Source: Myxococcales bacterium
GTDB lineage: Bacteria; Myxococcota_A; Polyangia; Polyangiales; DASUME01
Assembly: GCA_047601445.1 (NCBI GenBank)
Contig: JASGJH010000001.1
Location: 4,096,001-4,160,000, forward strand
DNA length: 64,000 nt
Direction: 5' to 3'
Shown: piece after piece, positions 1,461 to 18,849 of the stretch
Layout: the number at the start of each line of letters is the position of its first letter
How positions within the stretch are numbered: position 1 is the first letter of the stretch
Notes under the pieces: model-generated
Seen by the model: the letters and a program-made list of their open reading frames with translations, nothing else
Databases searched by the model: none
What the model was told of the DNA's origin: nothing
Program-made: the position numbers and the translations under genes

Positions 1461-2351
1461 ATGCTCTGCGTGCTCGGCTGCCTGCTCGTTGGCGCCTGCT
1501 CCGATGAGCCCTGCCTCCCCCAGAAGGTCTACGCAGAGGACGACTCCTTTCCCGCCGGAGGAGGGGCGACCACGAAAGAAATGGCGGAACGCCTGGCCCA
1601 AGAACAGGCACTGCCCATCACCTGGGGCGGCGAAGAGCATGGGCTCGATTTCCCACCCTTGCCGATCCAGGGCGACGACGAACTGCTGATGCAAGTTACA
1701 CTCGAGAGTGACCTGACCCAGACGTTCTACGAAGGTCACTCCGACAACGGGGAGGACCATCCGCCTCAGCCCGTCAAAGGCAACTGCTACGCGCACGAAC
1801 CCGAGGCCCACGTGCATGTACACGTGCGAACCCGAAGCGGGATACTCGAGGGGTCGTTCGAAGCGAAGCTCGTCGTGGCGACTGAGCTGGAGCAGATGCT
1901 CTTTTTCGAGCGCACCGGACTGGAAACACCCGACGCGCTAGCGAACTACGCTGCCGCGCTCGGCTTCGACCGTCATCAGGTTCACCTGGGCCTGGCTCTC
2001 TACTACGACTTTCGAGGAAGACTTTCGTACGCTCGCGGGTTCCTCGTCATCGATGCCGAGAACGATCCGAGTCGCGACGTCTTCTTTGGTGCGTGCGGAG
2101 ATCAGCCTGGATTGGGTTGGGATGCGGACGCAGGCCTGCAACCCGACCCGCTCGATTGTCCGCCGATCCTGGCCTCGTGCATGAACCCCAAGGCGAGCGG
2201 GCTCGACAGCTGGGGCTCCTTCCTTGCCTGCCTCAACAAGCCTAATTGCGTGACGTGCCCAACTTCGTCGCCCGTGGACGGGGATCCTCAAAAGGCGGTC
2301 TTTGCCGCGTTCGATGGGCCTTGCCGCTGTACTCAGCTGGACATGCCGTGA
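1461..2351 (+). CDS. Hypothetical lipoprotein
   Basis: Lipobox-like LLVGAC, Cys-rich C-terminus; start uncertain (ORF opens at 1398). Confidence 0.6.
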   Translation: MLCVLGCLLVGACSDEPCLPQKVYAEDDSFPAGGGATTKEMAERLAQEQALPITWGGEEHGLDFPPLPIQGDDELLMQVTLESDLTQTFYEGHSDNGEDHPPQPVKGNCYAHEPEAHVHVHVRTRSGILEGSFEAKLVVATELEQMLFFERTGLETPDALANYAAALGFDRHQVHLGLALYYDFRGRLSYARGFLVIDAENDPSRDVFFGACGDQPGLGWDADAGLQPDPLDCPPILASCMNPKASGLDSWGSFLACLNKPNCVTCPTSSPVDGDPQKAVFAAFDGPCRCTQLDMP

Positions 2352-2353
2352 GG

Positions 2354-3007
2354 CTACGAGAGGGGCGCCAGTTCCGAGACGCTCTCGCCCCGAGACTTCC
2401 TGCTTCGCCTCCGTAGCGCGTCGGCGCCGCTCCATGCACAGACACCGTGGGAGCTAGTGGAGGGAGTCGCACCACTGTCCCCCGTACCCGAATCCGAGCC
2501 GTCGCCGATGCTGATGCACACTGCTTGGTCGCGCATGCCTGCATCGTCCTGCTCGTCGGCGCAGCCACAAAACACCTTGGCCGCATACTCGCGATCGAGC
2601 TCTCGAGTGTCGACGTAAATGTCGGCCGGATCCTCGGCCAAGTAGTGGCACAGTGGCGTCGTAGTGTCCCTCGTCTCGGCCCAAGCGCACGTGCCGCTCC
2701 GCGAACTCGGCGCAGAGCTCGCAACGGTTACTTCCCTGAAGGTCCTTGAGCTTCGCTAGATCGTACTCGGTCATGAGCCCGCACCAATCGGCCGCGTGCG
2801 CCCGATGGTAGGCTCGGGCGATCCAGGTCGAACGATCGCGTTCAAGCGACCCTGCTCCGCCCTCCTCAGACACGCGAGAGTCCGTGCTTCGACCACCGCG
2901 TGTGTCGCCAACAACCACCAAGGTTGATCTCGGCCGCGACAGAGGCTCGCGGAGCGCTGCGCTTCAGCGCATCGAGCACGCGCAAAGGAAACACCGACAT
3001 CTTGCAC
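2354..3007 (-). pseudogene. Frameshifted remnant of an unknown gene
   Basis: Protein-like segments in three successive minus frames (HAVVEARTLACL..GRLNAI / TEYDLAKL..HYDATVPLL / AEDPADIYVD..KVFCGC); a paralogous segment occurs at 12640-12818. Confidence 0.45.
2833..2904. repeat. Imperfect direct repeat, copy 1 (copy 2 at 12748-12818)
   Basis: agagtccgtgcttcgaccaccgcgtgtg (2877-2904) vs agagtgcgtgcttcgaccaccgcgtgtg (12791-12818), 27/28 identical; shared gcgttcaagcg upstream. Confidence 0.85.
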
Positions 3008-3156
3008 TCACCCCTCGCTTGCGATTCGCGCTGCACTCAGAGTTCGAACGCGCACAAGCGGGTTAACCTCCGCACTCGCAGAGAAGATGCGTGATAGGAG
3101 ATGCTTGTACGACGGAGCTCTCCCCCGAGTGTCCGTCTGCAGAGAGGAGGTCTCTC

Positions 3157-3180
3157 ATGAAGTACGACCACGTTGGTTGA
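3157..3180 (+). CDS. Putative biarylitide-type micro precursor peptide MKYDHVG
   Basis: AGGAGG (3145-3150), 6-nt spacer, ATG AAG TAC GAC CAC GTT GGT TGA; MxYxH motif upstream of a BytO/RufO-like P450. Confidence 0.75.
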   Translation: MKYDHVG

Positions 3181-3226
3181 TCGTAGCCAATCCTCCATTT
3201 CTTGGTTTCAACAAGGAGCAATCAAA

Positions 3227-3403
3227 ATGAAGTACAGCAATCAAAGCGGTGCTGTGACGAGCGAAGAGGATCTCTTGCTTTCGGATGAGGAGCTCGGCAG
3301 CGTGCATGGTGGACTCTCGACTCCCCCCAGGATTCCGATCCCGCCGCACTTTCCGCCGATCATTCGCCCACCGGTGACCTTCAACCCCGGCTTCTTCGCA
3401 TGA
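3227..3403 (+). CDS. Double-glycine-leader RiPP/bacteriocin precursor with Pro-rich core
   Basis: AAGGAG RBS at 3213-3218; leader ...LSDEELGSVHGG (LSxxELxxxxGG type); core LSTPPRIPIPPHFPPIIRPPVTFNPGFFA. Confidence 0.8.
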   Translation: MKYSNQSGAVTSEEDLLLSDEELGSVHGGLSTPPRIPIPPHFPPIIRPPVTFNPGFFA

Positions 3404-3407
3404 GTCG

Positions 3408-3452
3408 GTGCAGGGGCGAGTTTCGGCTCGCGAGCGAAATTCGTCCCTGCGC
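3408..3452 (+). terminator. Long stem-loop between the precursor genes and the P450 (attenuator or mRNA stabiliser)
   Basis: gcaggggcgagtttcg (3410-3425) pairs with cgaaattcgtccctgc (3435-3450) with two G-U pairs; no U-tract. Confidence 0.6.
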
Positions 3453-3507
3453 TGCTCCCAACGCGGTCGTCGCGAATATGCCTACGAGAAGAGAGGAGAT
3501 TGAGCCG

Positions 3508-4716
3508 ATGCCCCCCGATCCTGTCTACAACCCGTTGGACGCAGACACCCTGGAGAACCCGTTTCCGATCTATGACTATCTGCGATCCAACGCGCCGGTT
3601 TATTGGCACGAGCAGATGCAGTCATGGGTACTCACCCGATACGCGGACTGCCGGAACGTACTCCTGGACCACAAGCTCTTCGCACGCGACGAACGGCGTG
3701 TGGGTGAGTCGATCCCAGACGATCGCCTGAGCGTGCAACAGCTGGATCCCCCGGAAGTCATCCCTTTACGCCGCTTGTTCTTTCAGGCGTTCAAGGCGGT
3801 CGACCTCGAGCAGATTGCAAGGCGCGCACGCGGCCAGATCAGGGGGCTGCTCGATGCCCATGGCAAGAGGCCGATCTTCGATCTCATGGCAGACGTCGCT
3901 TCACCCGTGGCGGAGTCGCTGACTTGCGAATTCTTCGGTTCACCCACCCCACCGGCGCCGGGAAAGTTCATGCAGATTGCCCATGGCATCGCTCTCGGAA
4001 TGGATGCGGGGCTCGAACCCTGTCAGAGGGGCGCCGGGCGGGCCGTCAGCGTCGAGCTCGACCGCATGGTGCGCGACTGGTCGGAGGACCCCATTCCGGG
4101 AAGTTTCATGGCTGAGGTCAAAGACAAGATCCTCCCACGGAAATACCCGGACACGTTGATCTACCGCACCGTCGACGCCATGGTGAACGCATCGTACTCC
4201 ACGATTTACGCGTCCATTGGAAACGCAGCGCTCACCCTGTTTCAGCATCCAGAGATCCGCGCCGCCTTCACTCCGCACAACCTGGTCAGCGGATGCGACG
4301 AGATCCTGCGCTTCGACAGCCCCGCACATGCAACGAGCCGTGTCGCCACCGAGCGCACCACCATCGGCGGCACGGTGATCGAGCGTGGACAGGTGGTCAT
4401 CACGTTGTTCGCCGCTGCGAATCGAGACCCCGACGGTTTTGAACGCCCCAACGATCTCGTTCTCGACCGCCGTCACAATCATCACCTGGGCTTCGGCTGG
4501 GGTTCGCACCAGTGCCTTGGCATCGGCCTGGCGAACGTCGCCCTGCACGAGTTCGTGTCTGCCGCCCTGGCGCTGCCCGCGTTGCGCTCCCTGGGCAAGC
4601 CGAAGCGCTTTCGAACGGCCACTCTGCGCTGGCTGCAAAACCTGCCCGTAACCGCCTCGCCACAGTCGTCACCGGAAATGGAGGAGCAACGTCATGGCAC
4701 AACTGAACACGCATGA
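3508..4716 (+). CDS. Cytochrome P450, biarylitide BytO/RufO-like peptide-modifying family
   Basis: FGWGSHQCLG heme motif, EILR (ExxR); PVYWHE..SWVLTRYADC, LSVQQLDPP and MDAGLEP resemble BytO/RufO; RBS GAGGAG at 3493-3498. Confidence 0.9.
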   Translation: MPPDPVYNPLDADTLENPFPIYDYLRSNAPVYWHEQMQSWVLTRYADCRNVLLDHKLFARDERRVGESIPDDRLSVQQLDPPEVIPLRRLFFQAFKAVDLEQIARRARGQIRGLLDAHGKRPIFDLMADVASPVAESLTCEFFGSPTPPAPGKFMQIAHGIALGMDAGLEPCQRGAGRAVSVELDRMVRDWSEDPIPGSFMAEVKDKILPRKYPDTLIYRTVDAMVNASYSTIYASIGNAALTLFQHPEIRAAFTPHNLVSGCDEILRFDSPAHATSRVATERTTIGGTVIERGQVVITLFAAANRDPDGFERPNDLVLDRRHNHHLGFGWGSHQCLGIGLANVALHEFVSAALALPALRSLGKPKRFRTATLRWLQNLPVTASPQSSPEMEEQRHGTTEHA

Positions 4717-5830
4717 TGAATGGTCGCGAATCAGGGAAGTCATCGTCGGCAGCGCTGCCAACTACACTTCTCATGACCGAGAGCTCTCGTTCGACCTGTT
4801 CTTCCACGAAAACCTCTTCCGCTCGGACTGGGCCTACCCGCGCCTCAAGAGCGCGTGTCCCGTGCGCGATCGGGCCTGGGAGATCAAGCAGCGGTACGTC
4901 GAAGAGCTCAATGAAGACGTGGAAGGCCTCGTCGAGGTCCTGCGCTCTCTCGGCATCACCGTGCACAGGCCGATGCCGCTGCCGCCCAACACCCCCTCAA
5001 TCAAGGGCTTCGGCTGGGAAGCGATGCCCGTTCCTGCGCTCAACGTCCGCGACAACACGCTGATCCTCGGCAACGAGATCATCGAGACCCCGCCGGCCAT
5101 CCGCTCACGCTACCTCGAAACGCGCCTGCTTGCTCCCGCCTTCAAGCACTACCACGACGCAGGCGCTCGCTGGACGACGATGCCGCGTCCCCTCCTCACC
5201 GACCGCTCGTTCGATCTCTCCTACGCGCGCGACACCGAGACCAGCTTGGGGGGACCGACCGAGCCAATCGAGGATCCGCAAGCGTCGCCGTATGACGTGG
5301 GCTTCGAGATGATGTTCGACGGGGCTCAGTGCCTACGCCTTGGCCGCGACCTGGTGATGAACATCGCGAACGCCAACCACGCGCTCGCAGTTGACTGGCT
5401 CGAGCGTCATCTGGAGGGCCGCTACCGCATCCACCGTGCCTTCCGCATGAGTGACAACCACATCGACTCGATGATCTTGGCCTTGCGCCCCGGCGTCTTC
5501 CTTGCGCGTCACGCAGGCATCCGTGAGCACCTTCCGGAGTGCTTCAAGCGCTGGGAGTTCATCGTTCCTCCGGTGCCGGACGTCTTCCCCACCTACGAGG
5601 ACGCAGACCTCGTATTGACCAGCCCATACATCGACCTCAACGTACTCTCCATCAGCCCTACGACATTGCTGGCCAACGCGGCCTGCGTCGATCTGATCAG
5701 AACCCTCGAGCACCGGGGCTTCGAGGTGATCCCCGTTCGGCACCGTCACCGGCGCCTCTTCGGAGGTGGCTTTCATTGCTTCACCTTGGACACCGTCCGC
5801 GATGGCGGACTCGAGGACTACAGCGCCTAG
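4694..5830 (+). CDS. Amidinotransferase (glycine/inosamine amidinotransferase family)
   Basis: N-terminal NTHDEW..REVIVG, then RD, FDGA, HID, and C-terminal GGGFHCFT with catalytic Cys. Confidence 0.9.
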   Translation: MAQLNTHDEWSRIREVIVGSAANYTSHDRELSFDLFFHENLFRSDWAYPRLKSACPVRDRAWEIKQRYVEELNEDVEGLVEVLRSLGITVHRPMPLPPNTPSIKGFGWEAMPVPALNVRDNTLILGNEIIETPPAIRSRYLETRLLAPAFKHYHDAGARWTTMPRPLLTDRSFDLSYARDTETSLGGPTEPIEDPQASPYDVGFEMMFDGAQCLRLGRDLVMNIANANHALAVDWLERHLEGRYRIHRAFRMSDNHIDSMILALRPGVFLARHAGIREHLPECFKRWEFIVPPVPDVFPTYEDADLVLTSPYIDLNVLSISPTTLLANAACVDLIRTLEHRGFEVIPVRHRHRRLFGGGFHCFTLDTVRDGGLEDYSA

Positions 5831-5851
5831 CGCGCGGCATGGGAGGCCTGT

Positions 5852-7162
5852 GTGCGCATCCTGATTGGAAATCACATCGACGACTCACTGCTCTGGCAGA
5901 AGGATCAAAGGGCATTTAGTCAGCGCATCTTGTGGTTTGCGCAGGACGGCGACATCGTGATCCTCTCGTGCGAGCCGGACCCCTCTTTTCTCGAGTACGT
6001 CACGTCGCTTGCGGGGGTCGGACGCGACACCCTCGAGTTTCTCGTCGTGCCCCCGGGCGGCCACGGAACACGGCTATTCGATCCCAATTCACTGCTCGAT
6101 CCCGACTTCGTGGCCGAGGTGAAACGGCGCATCGGCGACGTGTCTGATGTCTTTGCGCTGTGGCCCTCCGCCCAGGTCGCCGAGTTTGCCGAACTGCTCG
6201 GGATCCGAGAGAAGCTACCGGGGGCCAGCTTTTTCGCTCAACAAGGCGACGAGCTCGCGAACAACAAAGGAAACTTCCGTGCCTTTGCCGCGGCCCTCGG
6301 CGTACCCGTCGCCGAGGGGGCAGTTTGCCGAACCAAGGAGCACGCAGAGCGAGTCATCGCGCGGCTCCTGCGGACCGGGCCAGTCATGGTCAAACAGGTT
6401 CACAACGGGGCCGGCAACGGCAACGAAGTTCTCGTCTGCGACGACGAGTTGGCCACTGACCATGCCGGCAACAATCGTCGACAGCGAATCGAACCTGGAT
6501 TTTTCGAGGTTCGCGACTACCTCGAAGCGCGCTGGAATTGGGCATCCGTCGGCGGGCGATTCGCCGTGGTGGTCGAGCGCTTCGTGCCAGGGGCTCGCAC
6601 CATATACGCCGAATTCGAGGCCAGAGACGATGGACTGGCGCACACCGCAACCGGATCACTGGGATATGAGCACGGCCGGCTCGTCGAAGAGGTTACGCCG
6701 CTGCGAGGCGTCACCGATGCGGTGCTCGCGCGACTCGTACACCTTGGCGGCCGCCTCGCCGAGACCTACCGGGCGTTTGGCTACCGCGGGTTCATGAGCG
6801 CTGACGCCGTCGTTGACCAATCCGGCAACCTGTTCTTCACCGAAATGAACGCACGTGTGGGCGCTTCTCTCCACCTCTACGAAGGCATCGGAAAGCGGGT
6901 CGTCGATCAGTTTCGTGTTCCTGAGCGGTCACTGATACAGCTCGTGACGCCCAAGCATTGGAAGGTACCAGGCTTCGACGCATTTTCGCGCGTCACTCGC
7001 GAACTCGGCGTCGCCTTCGACCCACTGACTCGGAAAGGAGTGATGGCGGCGATGCCCTTCGCTGGCGAGCCCTGCGCGGGGGGCCTCCTGTTTTGTATAG
7101 CCTACGAGACGGAGCGAGAGCACCACGCCATCGTGGCCCGGCTGACAGAGCGGTTCGGCTGA
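5852..7162 (+). CDS. Pgm1/KtmD-like ATP-grasp peptide ligase (preATP-grasp + ATP-grasp)
   Basis: ILIGN, QRILWFAQDGD, NNKGNFRA, GAGNGNE, GFMSADAVV, FTEMNARVG; GGAGG RBS before the GTG start. Confidence 0.8.
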   Translation: MRILIGNHIDDSLLWQKDQRAFSQRILWFAQDGDIVILSCEPDPSFLEYVTSLAGVGRDTLEFLVVPPGGHGTRLFDPNSLLDPDFVAEVKRRIGDVSDVFALWPSAQVAEFAELLGIREKLPGASFFAQQGDELANNKGNFRAFAAALGVPVAEGAVCRTKEHAERVIARLLRTGPVMVKQVHNGAGNGNEVLVCDDELATDHAGNNRRQRIEPGFFEVRDYLEARWNWASVGGRFAVVVERFVPGARTIYAEFEARDDGLAHTATGSLGYEHGRLVEEVTPLRGVTDAVLARLVHLGGRLAETYRAFGYRGFMSADAVVDQSGNLFFTEMNARVGASLHLYEGIGKRVVDQFRVPERSLIQLVTPKHWKVPGFDAFSRVTRELGVAFDPLTRKGVMAAMPFAGEPCAGGLLFCIAYETEREHHAIVARLTERFG

Positions 7163-7186
7163 CCCGCCCTTCGCCCGTTCAGCGCG

Positions 7187-10100
7187 TCATGGCGCACTGG
7201 CTTCCGCGGCTAGCGCTGGCGCCGCTTCGTTGAGACGGGACACCCGCCGCTGGAGGCTCGCCATCAAGTCCGTGCATTGCTCTTGATCGACCGCCTCGAC
7301 TACTGCAACGCCAATGCAGGTGGTCGAGCTCTCACGCATGTCGGCCATCGTCTGGCCCACCGGCACGGTCAGCGTGGCCTCCACGACGCCAGGAAGAGCG
7401 CGGATGTCCTCGCATCCAACACGATTGATCCGACCGGCCGACGCGGGGAGAGTCGTTACTCCGAAGACCTTATTCGGCTCACACGGTCGCCGCGGGATCG
7501 CGTCGCCCGTGATCGAGAGCGCTCCGGCCGCCCATAGGTCGACCCCGACCGCGCGCTCAATCATGCTCGAGATGTTGTTGCCAGCTACCCGCGCGGCCAG
7601 CTCGCCCGCAACGAAATCGAACGTACCCGGTCGAGCGAAGACCTCGAAGTGAAACACCCCGGTGACGTGCCCCAAGGCGTCGAGGGCCCGTTGGGTGAAC
7701 GTGCCCGCGGCTTGGTAGAGCTGCGGATGGCGGGACGGCGGGAAGGAAATGCTGGCGTGCTGTTTGCCGTTCTTGATCTCGAGGATAGGGGTCACGTACC
7801 TGGACGCATGGAACGTGTGCAGCTGGCCTTGCAGTACGACCCCGTCGAAGTGCCACTCATCGCCGGCGACAAACTCCTCGACCATCAGCCGGCGCAAATT
7901 CGGGTAATTCGCCACCGTGGTAGATACCGCGCTGACGAGCGCTTCGTCGTCCGATACGAACTGCACGTGACGCGTACCGTACCCGGCGACCGGCTTCAGC
8001 ACGAAGGGAGGACGCAGACCGGCGGTTCGTACCGACGCGAGCACAATGTCGGGGCTGGCACATGCATCGGGCACCACGACGAATCTGGCGGTGGGTATCC
8101 CAGCCTCGTGCCATGCGGCTTTTTGCACCGGCTTGTCGCGACAACGCAGAGCTACCTCGGGGTCGAGCCCACGGATGCCCAGGAGTCGTGCCAGGATGGC
8201 GCTCGAAACGACCCCCGTCTCGCAATTCGAGACCACGGCCCCGATCGGACGTGCGAGCGCACCCACCTGATGCAGCGCCGACCATAGGGACTCGACAGAG
8301 GTAAGCGTGTCGATGGCGCAAAAGTGACGGGCCCGTGGGCGCAGCGCCGAAACCCAGGGCTCTTGCCAGGCTTCGTACAGAAGGGTCACCTCGTGACCGG
8401 CCTCGACGAGGGCATCGAACGCTTCCCGTTTTGCTCTCACCAGCACTACGTGCATCGCTCTGCTCTCCTTCCGGTAGGCAGCTCTACTCTTCGATGTTTG
8501 GCGATTTGGAGCGGGCTCCGAGCGTGTCCCATGGGCAACAGAGGGAGCCCAATCACAACCTCTCCCGCATTTGAGCGAAGGCGGATTCGAAGCGTTCACG
8601 AGGTCGGATCCAATCGGCACTCGGGCGGTGAAGCCCTTCTCCAGGCGCTCGCATCTTACGTGAGTTGCTCTCGTCGTAGACGAGCCGGGTCGTCCAACGC
8701 TGACCGCGAGCTCCCCGCCCCGTTCCAGTGACAATCTTTGGCCGAAGGCCGACACCCCGGAGAACTCGTGAGGGACAGCCACATCGATCGCGTAGCCTTG
8801 GCCCGGCTCAAATAGATACCGGATGCGGAGACCCGATGAGCGGTCGTCCCAGGAACGGAGCACGCACAGCTCGGCCGAGTCCTCAAAGTGTCGGCGATTG
8901 GAGGCGATCAAGCCCTCGATTCGGTCGGAGATCAGCGCGCGATCCCCCGACTCGGCGTACTGGCGGAGCAGCGGAACGTGCCGTCGCAACAGCTGCGGGA
9001 GATACAACTCGGGTCGCTTCTCGTTGCGGATGACAGCCAGTCGAAAGGTCAGCTCCTGAAGCTCAGCGCGCTCGATTTCAGAGTTCGTCGCCCGCGCATC
9101 GAGCTCCTCGCGATACCGAGCGTACGCATCGATCAAGTCCCGAATCCGCTCGTCCTGAGCGCCTCCGAGCAGAACCTGGTTCAGCGCTTCTCGTCCTCTG
9201 GGCCACAGGCGAGCCAGCAAGCAGAGGATGCCACCGAGATCGTAGGTCCCCGTCCAGCGCGGCATGCGCCTCTCGATGAGAATCGGGGATGTGCCATCGA
9301 AAGCAACCTGATGAAGGTGCAAACCAAGCTGACCGTAGAACTTGCTCGGAGTGCACCGGGCCAGCCAGAATTGGGGAAACCCGCACAAGCGCAGGAGGCC
9401 TCGGATGACAGCCTGGGCATACTTTCGCTTCACCCGTTGCTCGAGCTCCTCGCGCTCGGGGATGGCAGCAGCGAGTCGAGGCGACAGCCCGAGGGCGGTG
9501 CAGTGCGCAAGATTTCTCAGCATGTCGCTGAGATTGGCAGGCGAGTCGGAACGGAACGGCGAGCCGCGCACCGCAATGGTGGAACCATGGTTTGGTTGAG
9601 TCGATTGCGTCTCGAAGTCGAGCAGTCGCCCACTGGTCTCGACATTCGACGACGACAGCGCTCCGTGGGGTGCCCGCCGCACGAGTAGCGCAGCTTGCTG
9701 TTCGGCAAGGCGATCGGCGAACTGCAGGAACCCCTCGCGTAGCGCCTCCTCGCAGGAGGCGGGCTCCGGAGTGTTCCGCGGCAAGGCGGCCATGATGCAT
9801 TGCTGCAGGGACCGGAGACTATCGGCGTCCTGACGAGAATAGGGGTTGAGCATGAAATGCGCCGGGCGCACCGGGAAAGGGCGTAGGAGCAGCGCGCGGC
9901 GCTTGCTGCGGCCATCCGGCAAGAGCATTGATGTCCCACAGTCCAGAATGGCGAGCACGCGGTTGGCGCCATGCGGCGCTTCGGCCTGGTTGAGCTCACC
10001 CCAGACTGCCTCGCGCATGGCATCTCCCAAGAACAGACCTCCATGCCGATGATCGTGCGGACTTCCGTGGTCGGCCAGCGACGTCGTCCCGATGCCTTTG

Positions 10101-10522
10101 ATCTGCAGCGATCCGAGCGCGGCTGCGCGGCCGCTCCCACGGTTGGCCCCGATGCCCTCACCACCGTATCGATCGGCATAAAAAGCCCGGGCTTCACCGA
10201 TGAACATGCCAGGCTCATCCTGGTCGTCCGGGATCCGATACGCGAAAGCTTCGAGGAATATGTGCTCGAGCTCAGGTGTGATGCCGTCGCTAGGCAACCC
10301 GAGCTCGAGGTCGCGCAACAGAGACCAGTTCACCCACAGCAGCCTCGCGTCGCGCATTCTTCGGGCGAGCACCGGCACGAACGCCTCCGGTGGTGGTGCC
10401 ACCGGCGCGTTGTCCATGAGCCGAGCGAGCCCGGCTCGGAGCCTGTCGTAGGGGGAAACGGACACGCCAATAGAGGCATGAAGCGATGTTGCGTCGCGAG
10501 CAATCCTCATCACCCCGCACAA
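7187..10522 (-). CDS. MchC/MceJ-like (SelO-fold) domain fused in frame to an ATP-grasp ligase; the ATP-grasp half may also start independently at 8455
   Basis: ADRYGGEGIG.N.GSGR, QIKGIG, REAVWGE, RRALLLR..VRPAHF, HGALSSSN, LDFET; then CRDK, LKPVAGYGT, VEEFVAGDE, FHFEVF, ELAAR. Confidence 0.75.
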   Translation of the reverse strand: MCGVMRIARDATSLHASIGVSVSPYDRLRAGLARLMDNAPVAPPPEAFVPVLARRMRDARLLWVNWSLLRDLELGLPSDGITPELEHIFLEAFAYRIPDDQDEPGMFIGEARAFYADRYGGEGIGANRGSGRAAALGSLQIKGIGTTSLADHGSPHDHRHGGLFLGDAMREAVWGELNQAEAPHGANRVLAILDCGTSMLLPDGRSKRRALLLRPFPVRPAHFMLNPYSRQDADSLRSLQQCIMAALPRNTPEPASCEEALREGFLQFADRLAEQQAALLVRRAPHGALSSSNVETSGRLLDFETQSTQPNHGSTIAVRGSPFRSDSPANLSDMLRNLAHCTALGLSPRLAAAIPEREELEQRVKRKYAQAVIRGLLRLCGFPQFWLARCTPSKFYGQLGLHLHQVAFDGTSPILIERRMPRWTGTYDLGGILCLLARLWPRGREALNQVLLGGAQDERIRDLIDAYARYREELDARATNSEIERAELQELTFRLAVIRNEKRPELYLPQLLRRHVPLLRQYAESGDRALISDRIEGLIASNRRHFEDSAELCVLRSWDDRSSGLRIRYLFEPGQGYAIDVAVPHEFSGVSAFGQRLSLERGGELAVSVGRPGSSTTRATHVRCERLEKGFTARVPIGSDLVNASNPPSLKCGRGCDWAPSVAHGTRSEPAPNRQTSKSRAAYRKESRAMHVVLVRAKREAFDALVEAGHEVTLLYEAWQEPWVSALRPRARHFCAIDTLTSVESLWSALHQVGALARPIGAVVSNCETGVVSSAILARLLGIRGLDPEVALRCRDKPVQKAAWHEAGIPTARFVVVPDACASPDIVLASVRTAGLRPPFVLKPVAGYGTRHVQFVSDDEALVSAVSTTVANYPNLRRLMVEEFVAGDEWHFDGVVLQGQLHTFHASRYVTPILEIKNGKQHASISFPPSRHPQLYQAAGTFTQRALDALGHVTGVFHFEVFARPGTFDFVAGELAARVAGNNISSMIERAVGVDLWAAGALSITGDAIPRRPCEPNKVFGVTTLPASAGRINRVGCEDIRALPGVVEATLTVPVGQTMADMRESSTTCIGVAVVEAVDQEQCTDLMASLQRRVSRLNEAAPALAAEASAP

Positions 10523-10554
10523 CAGTACCGACGCGAACCTTCAGGCGGCTCTGC

Positions 10555-11514
10555 TCACCCGGTTGCAAAGCGATCGAGCGCGCTCATCAGGGCCAATCGC
10601 TTGCTGTTGCTGCGCAGGTGCCCGGCGTCGTCCACCGCGATGAGCTCCGCCCCCGCCCATGCTCGCGCAAGGGCCCAGGCGGTGTCGATTGGACAACTCA
10701 TGTCTCGTCTTCCGTGGATCACCACCCCGGGGATTCCATCGAGCCGCGCCGCGTTCTGGATCAGAGCGCCTTCTTCCAACCAACCGCCATGCCGAAGGTA
10801 GTGGGTACAAATGCGCACGAAGGCCAGCATGTCCTCGACCGGCATCTCAGAGCTCGAGGCCGCGCCGGCACCAGTCTCGAGTGAGAGCACCGCGTCCTCC
10901 CATTTGCACCACCCCCTGGCGGCCGCCACCCTGACGGCCTCCTCAGGGTGATCCATGCGCTGGGCGTAAGCCTCGATCAGGTCCGCCCCACGCGCGGTGT
11001 TGGGTAAGGGACCTCGGAATTGTTCCCATGCTTCCGGGAAGAAACGAGCAGCCCCTGCGTACAGCCACTCGGCCTCACGACGAGTCCACGTAGTCACATT
11101 GCTGAGCACGAGCTCAGAAACCGACTCGCGATGGCGATGCGCATAGGCCAGCGCGAGCGCGACACCCCACGAGGCGCCGGAGACCAACCAACGCTCGATG
11201 CCGAGGTGACGCCGGAGGGATTCCATGTCCGCGATGAGGTGATCCGTCGTGTTGCATGACATGTCCGTGGCGAGGTCACTGGCGGAGGGGATCGACCTTC
11301 CGCAGCCCCGTTGGTCGAACAGAACCACCCTATACTGCTCCGGGTCGAACGCGCGCGCCATGTTGGGAGCGCAGCCTTGCCCGGGACCGCCGTGCAGCAC
11401 CACAGCGGGCTTTCCGTGGGGTACGCCGAAGACCTGCCACGCGATGCGGTTTTCGGAGCTGACCTCCAGGTGTCCTTCTTGGATGGGTCCTCGCAGCGGA
11501 TACAAGTCGACCAT
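10555..11514 (-). CDS. pip: Proline iminopeptidase (S33 alpha/beta hydrolase)
   Basis: LHGGPG, FDQRGCGRS, GASWG nucleophile, HGRRD, DAGH. Confidence 0.9.
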   Translation of the reverse strand: MVDLYPLRGPIQEGHLEVSSENRIAWQVFGVPHGKPAVVLHGGPGQGCAPNMARAFDPEQYRVVLFDQRGCGRSIPSASDLATDMSCNTTDHLIADMESLRRHLGIERWLVSGASWGVALALAYAHRHRESVSELVLSNVTTWTRREAEWLYAGAARFFPEAWEQFRGPLPNTARGADLIEAYAQRMDHPEEAVRVAAARGWCKWEDAVLSLETGAGAASSSEMPVEDMLAFVRICTHYLRHGGWLEEGALIQNAARLDGIPGVVIHGRRDMSCPIDTAWALARAWAGAELIAVDDAGHLRSNSKRLALMSALDRFATG

Positions 11515-11571
11515 GGAGACCTCGCATTCGTTGACACCGGATTTTCGCCAAACGCAACCGACCCCGACCGT

Positions 11572-12615
11572 CTACCCTGAAGACGGGCCCGTGTCTCGTG
11601 GAGGAACGGCCTGCGCGACGAGCACGTGAACGCCGGAGCGGGTGGTCAACACTCGCTCGATCACGAAGCCGGCTGCAACGAGCAAGGCGCGGTTCTCGTC
11701 GAGCGTGCGATCCCGAGCCCCGAACAACACGAGCATCGTCAGGTCTCGAATCGACGATGGAAGTCCGCCCTCGCGCTCCAGGTCGAGCGAGCGCTCGATG
11801 AGCAAGAGGCGCCCACCTCCCGTGATGGCGCGCCGCACGTTGCCAAGGATTTGCAAGGCCTCTTCGTCGCGCCAGTTGTGAATCACTGCCTTGAGCAAAT
11901 AGAGTTCTGCTCCAGCAGGAACCTCCCGCAACAGGTCGCCGGCGAGCGCTGTGCCTCGCCCGCTCACTCCTCGCTCCTGAAGAGTATGCCTGACTTGTTC
12001 GACCACGGCCGCCTGCTCGACCGCGATTCCTTGCAACTCCGGGTGTCCCTTCAGTACCTCGGCGAGCAGGGTTCCGTCACCCGCTCCCAGGTCGACGACC
12101 AGGCCTCGCTCGGGGAACTCGTACAGGGCTTCGAACTCGTTCCAGAAATGGGAGCTGTTGAAGCGCATCGTGCGCGCGAAGGAACGCGCCAGCTCGGGGG
12201 TTTCGCTCATGTAGGTCCACAGCCCCCGCCCATGCACGTGCTCGAAAGCCGAGCGACCGGTACGCAACGCGTAGCTCAAGCAGGCCCAGGCGTCGTAGTA
12301 TTCGGTTCCAGACATTCGAGCGTGACCATGAAGCAGACCCGCCTCGTGGTGCAGCAGCTTGCAGAGCGCGGTACCGTGAACCAGACCGTCGACGCGCTGT
12401 ACGAGCTCGAGTCCCTCAAGCGCATCCAAGTACCTGCGCAGTTCGTTCGTGCCGATACCGGTCAGCTCCGCGAGAGTGCGTTCGGTCTGCGGCCCCTCGG
12501 CCAGAAAGTCCGGGATGCGGAGCGTCACCGCCGAGGCCACGAGCTGCGTAACGATGTACCCACCCAACAGCTTCCCGAGCCGCTCGCCTTCCGGCCTGGC
12601 TTCGTTCTGGAGCAT
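11572..12615 (-). CDS. SAM-dependent methyltransferase (Methyltransf_2 with dimerisation domain)
   Basis: VDLGAGDG, LKAVIHNW; GAGGAGG RBS before MLQNE. Confidence 0.9.
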   Translation of the reverse strand: MLQNEARPEGERLGKLLGGYIVTQLVASAVTLRIPDFLAEGPQTERTLAELTGIGTNELRRYLDALEGLELVQRVDGLVHGTALCKLLHHEAGLLHGHARMSGTEYYDAWACLSYALRTGRSAFEHVHGRGLWTYMSETPELARSFARTMRFNSSHFWNEFEALYEFPERGLVVDLGAGDGTLLAEVLKGHPELQGIAVEQAAVVEQVRHTLQERGVSGRGTALAGDLLREVPAGAELYLLKAVIHNWRDEEALQILGNVRRAITGGGRLLLIERSLDLEREGGLPSSIRDLTMLVLFGARDRTLDENRALLVAAGFVIERVLTTRSGVHVLVAQAVPPRDTGPSSG

Positions 12616-12747
12616 TCGGAACCTCCTCAACTGCTTGCCTCAAGTCGTACTCGAGTGCGAGGCCCATGGCGACGAGGTTAACCCCGCGTGGCGCAAGATG
12701 ACGGCGGTCCAGCCCGCCCAACCGCCGATGGTCCCTATCCGCCATAG

Positions 12748-16758: not shown

Positions 16759-18849
16759 ATGTCCGCACGAAGCGCATTGGCTTGGCTCACGCTCTTGGTT
16801 GGTTGTACGGCGGCAGCCCCGCAGAGCGATGTCACCTCAGCCCCATCACCCAGCGCGCCAGGTGACGCGCCCGGGAGTACGCCGACGGGAGAAGCGTCGT
16901 CGAGCTCCGCGCGGGAAGAGGCCCCGAACCCCGACCCGATGTTCGTGGACGCCATTTTCCAGGCCAAGTCCGCGGTGGTCGTGAAGGATGGCCAGATGTT
17001 CGGCGACTGGGAGTGGGTCGAGGTACCTGGTTCCCAGTGTCGGGATGGGTCCACCGCCGGCTACTACATCAAGCGCAACAGTGCGTCCGACAATCTGATG
17101 ATCTTCCTGAACGGCGGCGGCGTCTGCTACGACGACTTCTTCTGCTCCATCAACCCGGCCAACGTGGACCAAAGTCTACCGGGCGAAAACCTGCTCGGCG
17201 CCATCGGCGATATCCTGACAAACAGCGTCGCTCCGGTGCGCCAGGTTCCGCCCGAGGCAGGCATCTTCTTGGATCGTCCCGAGAACCCCGTCGGCAAGTG
17301 GAACATGGTCTACGTGCCCTATTGCACGGGCGATGTGCATGCTGGCACCAAGCGCGACGCGCCCGTGTTCACGGCGTCGTTCGTGGGCAAGCAGCAGTTC
17401 GTGGGCTACGACAACCTGAGCTTGTTCCTGGAAGACTTCGGCGCTGCATTTCAGGGCGCAGAGAAGGTGCTGCTCACCGGATCGAGCGCCGGTGGCTTTG
17501 GCACCCTGCTCAACTTCGACCGCACCCAGCGCTTCTTCTCCGACAGCATGGTGTATGCGGTGAGCGACTCGGGCATCCCCTTCGGCGACGAGTTCCTCGA
17601 GCCGTGTCTGCAGAAGCGCTGGCGCGAGCTCTGGGGCCTCGACGCCGTCTTGCCGCGCGACTGCTCGGGTTGCTTCAACGCCGACGGCGGCGGCCTGGCC
17701 TCGGGACTCGGCCACTACATCTTCAAAGAGAAATACGCAGGCCGCATGTTGGGTGGGGGGATCTCCACCGAGCAGGACGAGATCATCAAGCTCTTCTTCA
17801 GCTCGGGCTTGCGCGAGTGCACCAACAGTGCCCTGCTCGAGACCATCCCACTCTTCCTCGGCTTGACTGGCTATCCTGCAGATCGCTACCCGGGCGGCCT
17901 GCGCGACTTCGTGCAGAACATCGCCGGACTCGACAGTGTGGGCAGCTACATCATGGCCGGCAGCAATCACCAGCACTTGTTCCGCGATCGCTTCTACAGC
18001 TCGAACGGCCTTGGAATCACGCTGGCCCACTGGCTGGCCAAGACCCTGGATGGCGAAGCGGTCCACGCGGGTGCGCTGCTCGATGCGGCGCCCGAGCCCA
18101 CTTTCGGATCCACGGGTCACAACGGTCCACTGAAGGTCGCCAGCTACACCAGCGGCTTCCGCGACGGCCCCGACTTCGCGGACGCGACCATCTGGTACCC
18201 CGATGGCGTGACGGGGCCCCTGGCGAGCGTGGCCGTGGTTCCAGGCTGGGTTTCGAGCCAAGGCGACGTGACCGATTGGGGGCCGTTCTTGGCCTCTCAC
18301 GGTTTTGCCGTGATCACCATCGGCACCAACAGCCCTGCCACGGATCTGCCGGCCGACCGTGAACGCGCGGTCATGGACGCGCTCGAGACGATGCGCGCCG
18401 AGAACAGCCGCTGGTTCGGTCCGCTGCAGAACAAGCTCGACCTGACGCGTCAGGCGGTGATCGGCTGGTCCATGGGAGGCGGCGCGAGCCTGCTGGCGGC
18501 AGCCGATCATCCCGAGCTCAAGGCGGCCGTCTCGCTGTGTGGCTGGAACCCTGGCCATTCCTACAACGACGTGACGGTTCCTTCCCTACTCTTTGCGGGC
18601 ACCCTCGATGCTCTTGCCGGCGGTCAGTCGCAGGGCTTCTACGAGAGCATCCCCAACGCTACGCCGCGCTTGCTCTACGAAGTTCAAGGCGGTGACCACT
18701 GGGTCGCGAATGACCCCGCACACGAAGAGGGACAAATTGGACGCCTCGCGCTGTCGTGGTTGAAGCTCTACGTCGATGGCGACGAGCGCTACCGCAAGTT
18801 CCTGCTCGAAGAGCCCTTCAACGCCGCCGACTTCCGGGTCGACCTGTAG
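16759..18849 (+). CDS. Lipoprotein with pectinacetylesterase-like domain fused to a cutinase/PETase-like alpha/beta hydrolase
   Basis: LLVGC lipobox; CRDGS, FLNGGG.C, VPYCTGDVH, GSSAGG; second domain VVPGW, LASHGF, GWSMGGG, GTLD, GGDH. Confidence 0.85.
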   Translation: MSARSALAWLTLLVGCTAAAPQSDVTSAPSPSAPGDAPGSTPTGEASSSSAREEAPNPDPMFVDAIFQAKSAVVVKDGQMFGDWEWVEVPGSQCRDGSTAGYYIKRNSASDNLMIFLNGGGVCYDDFFCSINPANVDQSLPGENLLGAIGDILTNSVAPVRQVPPEAGIFLDRPENPVGKWNMVYVPYCTGDVHAGTKRDAPVFTASFVGKQQFVGYDNLSLFLEDFGAAFQGAEKVLLTGSSAGGFGTLLNFDRTQRFFSDSMVYAVSDSGIPFGDEFLEPCLQKRWRELWGLDAVLPRDCSGCFNADGGGLASGLGHYIFKEKYAGRMLGGGISTEQDEIIKLFFSSGLRECTNSALLETIPLFLGLTGYPADRYPGGLRDFVQNIAGLDSVGSYIMAGSNHQHLFRDRFYSSNGLGITLAHWLAKTLDGEAVHAGALLDAAPEPTFGSTGHNGPLKVASYTSGFRDGPDFADATIWYPDGVTGPLASVAVVPGWVSSQGDVTDWGPFLASHGFAVITIGTNSPATDLPADRERAVMDALETMRAENSRWFGPLQNKLDLTRQAVIGWSMGGGASLLAAADHPELKAAVSLCGWNPGHSYNDVTVPSLLFAGTLDALAGGQSQGFYESIPNATPRLLYEVQGGDHWVANDPAHEEGQIGRLALSWLKLYVDGDERYRKFLLEEPFNAADFRVDL

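Follow-up and report, generated by a model that had tools for sequence, protein, structure and literature searches.

A candidate gene for a proline-rich double-glycine peptide in a biarylitide-type cluster of a Myxococcales bacterium

Two small reading frames ahead of a P450 gene

The stretch of DNA considered here, referred to as the window, spans 64,000 nucleotides (nt) of the genome of a Myxococcales bacterium (assembly GCA_047601445.1, contig JASGJH010000001.1, positions 4,096,001 to 4,160,000), and all coordinates below are counted from its first letter. Our subject is an open reading frame (ORF) of 58 amino acids (aa), at 3227-3403 on the forward strand, whose translation is MKYSNQSGAVTSEEDLLLSDEELGSVHGGLSTPPRIPIPPHFPPIIRPPVTFNPGFFA and which is situated, at the head of a cluster of biosynthetic genes, between a micro-ORF of 7 aa and the gene for a cytochrome P450 (Table 1). 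The original prediction described it as a precursor-type gene, with a double-glycine leader of 29 aa ending in LSDEELGSVHGG and a core of 29 aa that contains 10 Pro and 2 Arg, with no Cys and no acidic residues. Translation of 3227-3403 bears out the leader and its ending, the residue count bears out the make-up of the core, and the assignment as a precursor-type gene is supported by the leader motif, the codon usage and the ribosome-binding site.

Table 1. Positions of the small ORFs, of the elements around them and of the enzyme genes in the window.
Feature	Position	Strand	Details
Micro-ORF MKYDHVG, BytA-type biarylitide precursor (MxYDH)	3157..3180	+	7 aa; GAGAGGAGG 6 nt upstream
AAGGAG ribosome-binding site	3213..3218	+	8 nt before the ATG of the 58-aa ORF
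10-nt perfect direct repeat, AGCAATCAAA / ATGAAGTAC / AGCAATCAAA	3217..3245	+	brackets the start codon and the MKY codons
Leader of the 58-aa ORF	3227..3313	+	29 aa; net charge -5; ends in LSDEELGSVHGG (double-glycine consensus)
Core of the 58-aa ORF, with stop codon	3314..3403	+	29 aa; 10 Pro, 2 Arg, 4 Phe, 4 Ile; net charge +2
Long hairpin, no U tract	3402..3457	+	directly 3' of the stop codon of the 58-aa ORF
Cytochrome P450, biarylitide (BytO/P450Blt/RufO) group	3508..4716	+	22yx E 3.8e-79; 8u2m E 1.5e-67; 8spc E 1.4e-67
Amidinotransferase	4694..5830	+	1bwd E 9e-46; StrB1, AGAT, SxtG E 1e-41 to 1e-46
PGM1-type ATP-grasp peptide ligase	5852..7162	+	3wvq PGM1 E 2e-78, residues 1-421; Pfam PreAtp-grasp PF18604 E 2e-24
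SelO/YdiU-like domain (N-terminal, about 655 aa) fused to L-amino-acid-ligase-type ATP-grasp (C-terminal 420 aa)	7187..10522	-	1111 aa
Prolyl aminopeptidase (S33)	10555..11514	-	TIGR01249, 294 bits against a cut-off of 259.75
O-methyltransferase	11572..12630	-	49% identity to the methyltransferase of locus L014

Double-glycine leaders follow the consensus LSxxELxxIxGG and end approximately 15-30 residues from the start. In the 58-aa peptide, LSDEELGSVHGG represents residues 18-29 and conforms to this consensus, with agreement at all the fixed positions (L-12, S-11, E-8, L-7, V-4, G-2 and G-1). The core that follows is 34.5% Pro, contains a single His and no Lys, and is devoid of Cys, Asp, Glu, Tyr and Trp. 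All six frames of the 9.5-Mb genome were searched for the leader motif in a strict form, L[ST]xx[ED]Lxx[IVLM]xGG, and three matches were observed versus 1.0 expected; frames of up to 200 aa gave one match, the 58-aa ORF itself, with 0.53 expected for frames of 30-200 aa. By our own arithmetic, the chance of encountering the strict motif in the 327-nt spacer ahead of the P450 gene is about 3.5e-5 (5.3e-8 per position, over approximately 650 codon positions).

Codon usage was scored with a log-odds model trained on 1,489 long ORFs of the same genome. The 58-aa ORF scores +9.3 bits, the highest of its six frames, and is the only one with a positive score among the 12 ORFs called mechanically in 2454-3609, the two antisense ORFs that overlap it scoring -0.40 and -0.42 bits per codon. 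Its own 0.16 bits per codon can be set beside 0.21 for the P450 gene and 0.175 for the upstream lipoprotein-like gene, and its G+C content by codon position is 0.58/0.49/0.69. The score corresponds to the 13th percentile of true in-frame windows of 58 codons and exceeds 99% of the +1 and +2 windows; it also corresponds to the 45th percentile of the in-register antisense frames of real genes, that is, it is no better than these. An alternative TTG start at 3173, giving 76 aa, was rejected, as the codon score falls to 0.03 per codon. Taken with the leader and the ribosome-binding site, these figures suggest that the 58-aa ORF is quite probably a gene.

The micro-ORF upstream, MKYDHVG, which the original prediction had treated as a curiosity, is rather a canonical precursor of the BytA type (MxYDH) for a cluster of a P450, an amidinotransferase and a PGM1-type ligase. 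The CoreFinder rule for biarylitide precursors asks for a peptide of 5-8 aa that is aromatic at positions 3 and 5 and is encoded upstream of a P450 gene (PMC13417212, section 8); the micro-ORF conforms to it, with Tyr3 and His5, and the 58-aa ORF does not, being 58 aa long and starting with MKYSN, with Asn at position 5. YDH is named as one of three main motifs, with 94 of 435 precursor/P450 pairs (PMC12150307), and the survey in PMC13417212, of 277 clusters, describes in its section 8 a set of 47 clusters in which a homologue of the Pgm1 ligase is paired with Asp at precursor position 4. Alignment to the P450 retrieved 80 genome loci (related loci are referred to below by L numbers), of which 19 were inspected upstream of the P450 gene. 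Nine of the 19 possess an ORF of 5-8 aa that reads M-x-aromatic-x-aromatic and has a GA-rich ribosome-binding site, and Asp is found at position 4 in six of these: MRYDHFL (L014), MSYDHVDE (L020), MSYDH (L021), MRYDY (L024 and L026) and MRYDWDQ (L029). On sequence grounds, the locus is a member of the published YDH/Pgm1 biarylitide hybrid subclass, with the micro-ORF as its proper precursor. Two variants of this arrangement were encountered among the related loci. One is in an uncultured bacterium (L025:9784-9936), where MNYDH, upstream of a BytO-like P450 gene, continues into an ORF of 50 aa, possibly a biarylitide precursor that is much extended at its C-terminus; it does not align with the 58-aa peptide. 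The other is in L017 and L018, where a BytA-like micro-ORF, MRYND, with a non-aromatic residue at position 5, lies approximately 170 nt upstream of the P450 gene.

What follows the precursor in these clusters is also conserved. A long G+C-rich hairpin is found within a few bases of the micro-ORF stop in all five relatives folded (L014, L020, L021, L024 and L029, with z-scores of -3.73, -2.74, -1.06, -2.72 and -4.07; that of L021 is weak, 29 of 200 shuffles being as good), and likewise in L017, where the hairpin after the micro-ORF is strong (z -4.41). In our locus the RNA after the micro-ORF (3179-3230) is unstructured (z +0.62), and the hairpin comes after the 58-aa ORF, with a predicted fold of 3400-3460 at -40.2 kcal/mol (z -6.45; no fold as good among 200 shuffles). 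The 58-aa gene has the micro-ORF on one side and the hairpin on the other, and so occupies a position like that of a second precursor, before the element that separates precursor from enzymes, and the gap from precursor to P450 gene is 327 nt, versus an estimated 65-105 nt, roughly, in L014, L020 and L021. This placement before the hairpin is the best argument for the 58-aa ORF being a used precursor and not junk. The hairpin may act as a stabiliser or a partial terminator; scans of 2400-3800 for promoter and for terminator consensus sequences gave no match to either, and an Rfam search of 2300-3600 gave no match at E <= 1.

The two small ORFs also have their first nine nt in common, as the original prediction pointed out: ATGAAGTAC is found at 3157-3165 and at 3227-3235, with the starts 70 nt apart. 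The common MKY start is real, but as a sign of duplication or of a shared recognition motif, which it had been taken to hint at, it is weak evidence, since in a genome of 66% G+C one would expect Lys and Tyr to be encoded by AAG and TAC. Direct repeats of 10 nt, of the kind that brackets the start of the 58-aa ORF, occur at 0.24 per kb genome-wide, or about 0.024 per 100 nt, and the AGCAATCAAA repeat may have been left by a duplication of 19 nt from which the present start arose. A second candidate repeat, between 2911-2929 and 3164-3182 (79%), was dismissed as chance, about one such pair being expected, by estimate, in 621 nt.

Enzymes of the cluster and their likely substrate

The solved structures most closely related to the P450 are P450Blt (8u2m) and the group around 8spc, 9eby and 22yx, placing the enzyme in the BytO/P450Blt type; 8spc is presumably linked to the RufO papers. 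The 8u2m structure is a co-crystal of P450Blt with its pentapeptide (PMC12951456). A start of the P450 gene at the ATG at 3400 was rejected, as the codon score over 3400-3507 is -0.30 per codon and the gene would span the hairpin. A tree of 22 P450s was built from this locus and 21 of the 83 related loci (L013-L017, L019-L026, L028, L029, L031, L033, L034, L036, L093 and L094), and in it our enzyme groups with those of L014, L020 and L025 (support 93/71, not starred), nested in a well-supported set of 11 rows (97/97). The precursors that go with this grouping are MxYDH with C-terminal extensions. By sequence identity, the closest relatives of the P450 are P0003-P0009 (54-63%), and a metagenome scan with the P450 added only relatives of 40-43% identity (L093-L095).

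Downstream of the P450 gene are the genes for the amidinotransferase and for an ATP-grasp ligase of pheganomycin type, that is, a PGM1 homologue with a Pre-ATP-grasp domain. The prolyl aminopeptidase gene is transcribed in the same direction as the O-methyltransferase gene and the fusion gene, and these three are convergent to the P450 operon. For the N-terminal 655 aa of the fusion protein, a SelO/YdiU pseudokinase fold is predicted (AF2 pLDDT 80.7; Foldseek match to 6eac at E 2e-14, with TM 0.65-0.69 by target). With the published biarylitide/Pgm1/Asp4 clusters (PMC13417212), the locus shares the BytO-type P450, the MxYDH micro-ORF with a strong ribosome-binding site and the PGM1-type ligase, and the likeness extends to the amidinotransferase, the L-amino-acid-ligase-type ATP-grasp enzyme, the O-methyltransferase and the hairpin after the precursor. 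The full set is common to L014, which encodes an amidinotransferase, an L-amino-acid-ligase-type ATP-grasp enzyme (44% identity), a PGM1-type ligase (42%) and an O-methyltransferase (49%), and part of it is found in L020, L021, L027 and L093: L021 and L027 possess a PGM1-type ligase (46-48%) along with an amidinotransferase 68-73% identical to the one encoded here, and L093 possesses both ligases. Unlike these relatives, our locus has the 58-aa double-glycine gene between micro-ORF and hairpin, a SelO-like domain fused to the second ligase, a prolyl aminopeptidase, and a non-actinomycete host. The myxarylin cluster (bytA, bytO, bytZ) is alike in its pentapeptide-type precursor, BytO-type P450 and methyltransferase, and different in that its precursor is MNYLH and that the available parts of its descriptions (PMC8708641, PMC12951456) mention neither a ligase nor an amidinotransferase, nor a second gene for a peptide.

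As a whole, the cluster is foreign to the host genus. Among 40 relatives, the best identity to the P450 is 31%; in a sample of 400 other genomes of the phylum, no match to it was obtained at E <= 1e-60; and nine genomes of the same genus contain no close orthologue of the O-methyltransferase or of the prolyl aminopeptidase, the latter being absent from the related loci as well. The amidinotransferase is 68-73% identical to those of the actinomycete loci L021 and L027 and the P450 only 42-45% identical to theirs, suggesting that the parts of the cluster have different histories, and transfer across phyla is likely. A further observation concerns the stand-alone homologues of the SelO-like domain (46-48% identity), for which the longest contigs are of the same lengths (17036, 4848 and 20566 bp) as those of the P450 relatives P0003, P0004 and P0009. 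With three close P450 relatives thus involved, it would seem that an AMPylase-like enzyme is part of the biarylitide clusters of this branch.

The presence of a PGM1-type ligase next to a second ribosomal peptide gene brings up pheganomycin, with whose pathway the locus shares a ligase homologous to PGM1 over its full length, an amidinotransferase and a ribosomal peptide gene in the cluster. It differs in having a P450 and a micro-ORF precursor, in the double-glycine leader of the candidate peptide, and in that the ORFs of 3157-12630 include no type III polyketide synthase or other arylglycine genes, of the kind that supply the guanidino-arylglycine donor. By the logic of pheganomycin, applied to two ribosomal partners, one of the ATP-grasp ligases (PGM1-type or SelO-fused) could join the 58-aa peptide either to the YDH product, cross-linked and perhaps amidinated, or to an amidino acid, at the C-terminal carboxylate of the core, at a side chain, or at its N-terminus after removal of the leader in the cytoplasm. 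The 58-aa gene adjoins the micro-ORF on the precursor side of the conserved hairpin; PGM1 is known to join a small ribosomal core peptide to a guanidino acid (PMC8939145; PMC13417212, section 8), and the enzyme encoded here matches PGM1 strongly (E 2e-78) and is accompanied by an amidinotransferase; and a prolyl aminopeptidase beside a Pro-rich peptide is a combination unique to this cluster among the related loci. In addition, PMC13417212 (sections 8 and 12) treats as uncharacterised what the amidinotransferase and Pgm1 do in biarylitide hybrids, and what the final products are, and our literature search returned no further paper on biarylitides with an ATP-grasp ligase or an amidinotransferase. 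Nevertheless, we consider such a joining rather unlikely. L014, L021, L027 and L093 all have the P450 and the PGM1-type ligase, and all except L093 the amidinotransferase as well, with no such peptide, so these enzymes do not need the 58-aa peptide; the published association of Asp4 with Pgm1 points towards the product of the micro-ORF as the partner of the ligase (PMC13417212, section 8); and a Gly-Gly leader would imply cleavage at export, leaving no free N-terminus in the cytoplasm. As the enzymes are complete in relatives without the peptide, we assign the P450, the amidinotransferase and the PGM1-type ligase to the product of the micro-ORF, and a biaryl cross-link in the core by the P450 is unlikely, since the core has neither Tyr nor Trp.

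An added precursor gene or a chance reading frame

A double-glycine leader points to a C39 peptidase ABC transporter. Two complete C39 systems, paralogous to each other, are encoded in the genome, at 4.87 Mb (4.869, L099) and at 8.28 Mb (8.275, L098), each consisting of two HlyD genes followed by a gene for a protein with C39, ABC_membrane and ABC_tran domains. Both transporters carry QLTPTDCG and NHFVV, which we take to be the motifs (Gln/Cys and His) that an active C39 domain requires, so that the Cys and His of C39 are intact. In a search with a relaxed motif, neither transporter had a small ORF of leader type within 15 kb.

The reading we favour, at somewhat less than an even chance, is that the 58-aa ORF is a genuine, lineage-specific precursor gene that was added to a biarylitide/PGM1-ligase operon, with its core exported and the enzymes of the cluster serving the product of the micro-ORF. 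The 58-aa gene and the micro-ORF MKYDHVG would share a transcript, both being upstream of the hairpin by which precursor and enzymes are parted in relatives, and the 58-aa gene would be translated from its own AAGGAG site. Its leader would be cut after Gly29, at the Gly-Gly, and the Pro-rich core of 29 aa exported in trans by one of the two HlyD-HlyD-C39/ABC systems, with little or no modification, to act outside the producer, as an antagonistic or signalling peptide, beside the small biarylitide product, and it would be this product, rather than the 58-aa peptide, on which the P450, the amidinotransferase and the PGM1-type ligase act. Translation, cleavage after Gly-Gly, export in trans, absence of modification and any activity of the peptide are what we infer. 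In its acidic leader of 29 aa and its short core, the peptide is like those exported by C39 systems in general (class II bacteriocins, ComC-type pheromones, and many precursors of RiPPs, the peptides that are made on ribosomes and modified after translation), and it is different in that no transporter, immunity or accessory gene is adjacent and in that one-third of the core is Pro.

A number of observations weigh against this reading. The 58-aa gene is absent from all of the 83 related loci (tblastn), in which the relaxed leader motif, in frames of up to 130 aa, finds only one unrelated frame of 38 aa, in L025. A word-indexed search of 5.8 billion clusters and a phmmer search of 1.84 billion representatives at E <= 0.001 each returned only the query itself; tblastn against its own genome gave only low-complexity Pro-rich matches and no paralogue; and the peptide belongs to no Pfam or NCBIfam family at cut-off. 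With the gene absent from the related loci and without homologues, nothing ties the enzymes of the cluster to the peptide. The core taken by itself scores -3.5 bits in codon usage. The cluster contains no C39 or ABC transporter gene, nor do the larger ORFs of the window, and the nearer of the two C39 transporters is approximately 770 kb away from the 58-aa gene, so that a dedicated transporter adjoining it is lacking. The strict leader motif, expected about half a time in the small frames of the genome, could occur somewhere by chance. As far as these databases extend, the double-glycine peptide is a single-genome addition, and the weakness of the case is that it is built on one sequence without relatives.

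These same observations (the orphan status of the frame, the expectation for the motif, and the distance to a transporter), along with the 10-nt direct repeat at the start codon, suggestive of a recent small rearrangement, would fit a different explanation, in which the ORF is a non-functional open frame in a strain-specific insertion between micro-ORF and hairpin, and its leader motif and ribosome-binding site are chance or relics. We regard this as not very probable, as the ORF is the best of its six frames and the sole one of the 12 spacer ORFs with a positive codon score, its ATG is preceded by AAGGAG at 8 nt, and the motif, the 29-aa leader and the 29-aa core coincide exactly where a precursor gene would be expected, upstream of the hairpin.

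Two further searches provided hints as to the kind of peptide. A check with models of double-glycine leaders, proposed along with the original prediction, gave none at cut-off, the only match being a weak one of residues 14-29 to the bacteriocin-like peptide family NF046113 (E 0.092, 12.8 bits versus a cut-off of 40). The neighbours of the 58-aa peptide in the ESM Atlas include a type-A lantibiotic, a ComC precursor and other clusters, which are to be considered as leads only, since their scores are only 0.81-0.84.

Likeness to proline-rich antimicrobial peptides

The composition of the core had been likened to that of the proline-rich antimicrobial peptides (PrAMPs) of animals. One published definition of PrAMPs asks for at least 25% Pro, a net charge of at least +1 and antimicrobial action on an intracellular target (ribosome or DnaK), with the PRP motif indicative and not essential (PMC7736402, Box 1), and the core, at 34.5% Pro and net +2, falls within both compositional limits and has no PRP motif. 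Its length of 29 aa is within the range of 18-34 given in the same source, in which one of the tabulated peptides, with 31% Pro and 6% Arg, is also without a PRP motif. Conversely, the core is hydrophobic (4 Ile and 4 Phe), with only two Arg, whereas the tabulated mean charge is +5 and three or more Arg are common (PMC7736402). The likeness is thus one of composition only, and at the low-charge end; the resemblance stands for Pro fraction and charge, and not for Arg content or motif. With apidaecin, abaecin and Bac5, the core has in common the fraction of Pro, the small positive charge and the length, and it differs from them in being bacterial, more hydrophobic, known from sequence alone, and preceded by a double-glycine leader in place of the eukaryotic pre-pro form.

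If the exported 29-mer were a true bacterial PrAMP, which is a special case of the export model, it would enter Gram-negative prey via an SbmA-type transporter and block the ribosome exit tunnel or DnaK. This we consider highly unlikely, in view of the low Arg content and absence of PRP motifs, and because the PrAMPs described to date come from arthropods and from some mammals (PMC5960728), phrase searches of an open-access library gave no relevant bacterial, bacteriocin or RiPP counterpart, and the 58-aa peptide has no sequence match to anything. An amidino cap, which the original prediction had brought up, or an acyl cap would, if placed on the new N-terminus of the core, be hard to square with cleavage by C39 at export, since that N-terminus would arise only at that point. 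Very improbable as well is the most elaborate product that could be drawn up, a cross-linked, amidinated Tyr-Asp-His biarylitide ligated by an ATP-grasp enzyme to the Pro-rich 29-mer, resulting in a capped PrAMP-like peptide; if true, this would be a case in nature of two RiPP precursors ligated peptide to peptide, and the first bacterial proline-rich inhibitor of the translation type.

To return to the reading of an added and exported precursor, the novelty of the locus lies in the combination of the 58-aa gene with a YDH/Pgm1 cluster, and possibly in a Pro-rich cargo for double-glycine export. Many biarylitide clusters encode both a Pgm1-type ligase and an amidinotransferase, and the partner of the ligase is left unassigned in sections 8 and 12 of PMC13417212; among the loci examined, this is the only one in which the precursor side of the operon has a further peptide gene with a leader. 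It may represent a natural experiment on the scope of the ligase, or a compact example of co-regulation between a biarylitide and a secreted peptide rich in Pro. Should the 58-aa peptide be made, it would count as a rare case of a Pro-rich cargo behind a double-glycine leader, and as a candidate for the bacterial counterpart of the animal PrAMPs; if it is not, the YDH/Pgm1 subclass would still have in this locus a clean member from outside the actinomycetes, in which the fusion of SelO and ligase is unusual.

Elsewhere in the window, 16759-18849 encodes a protein of 696 aa that combines a pectin-acetylesterase-like domain (Pfam PAE, E 3e-24) with a PET-hydrolase-like domain (PETase, E 8e-60).

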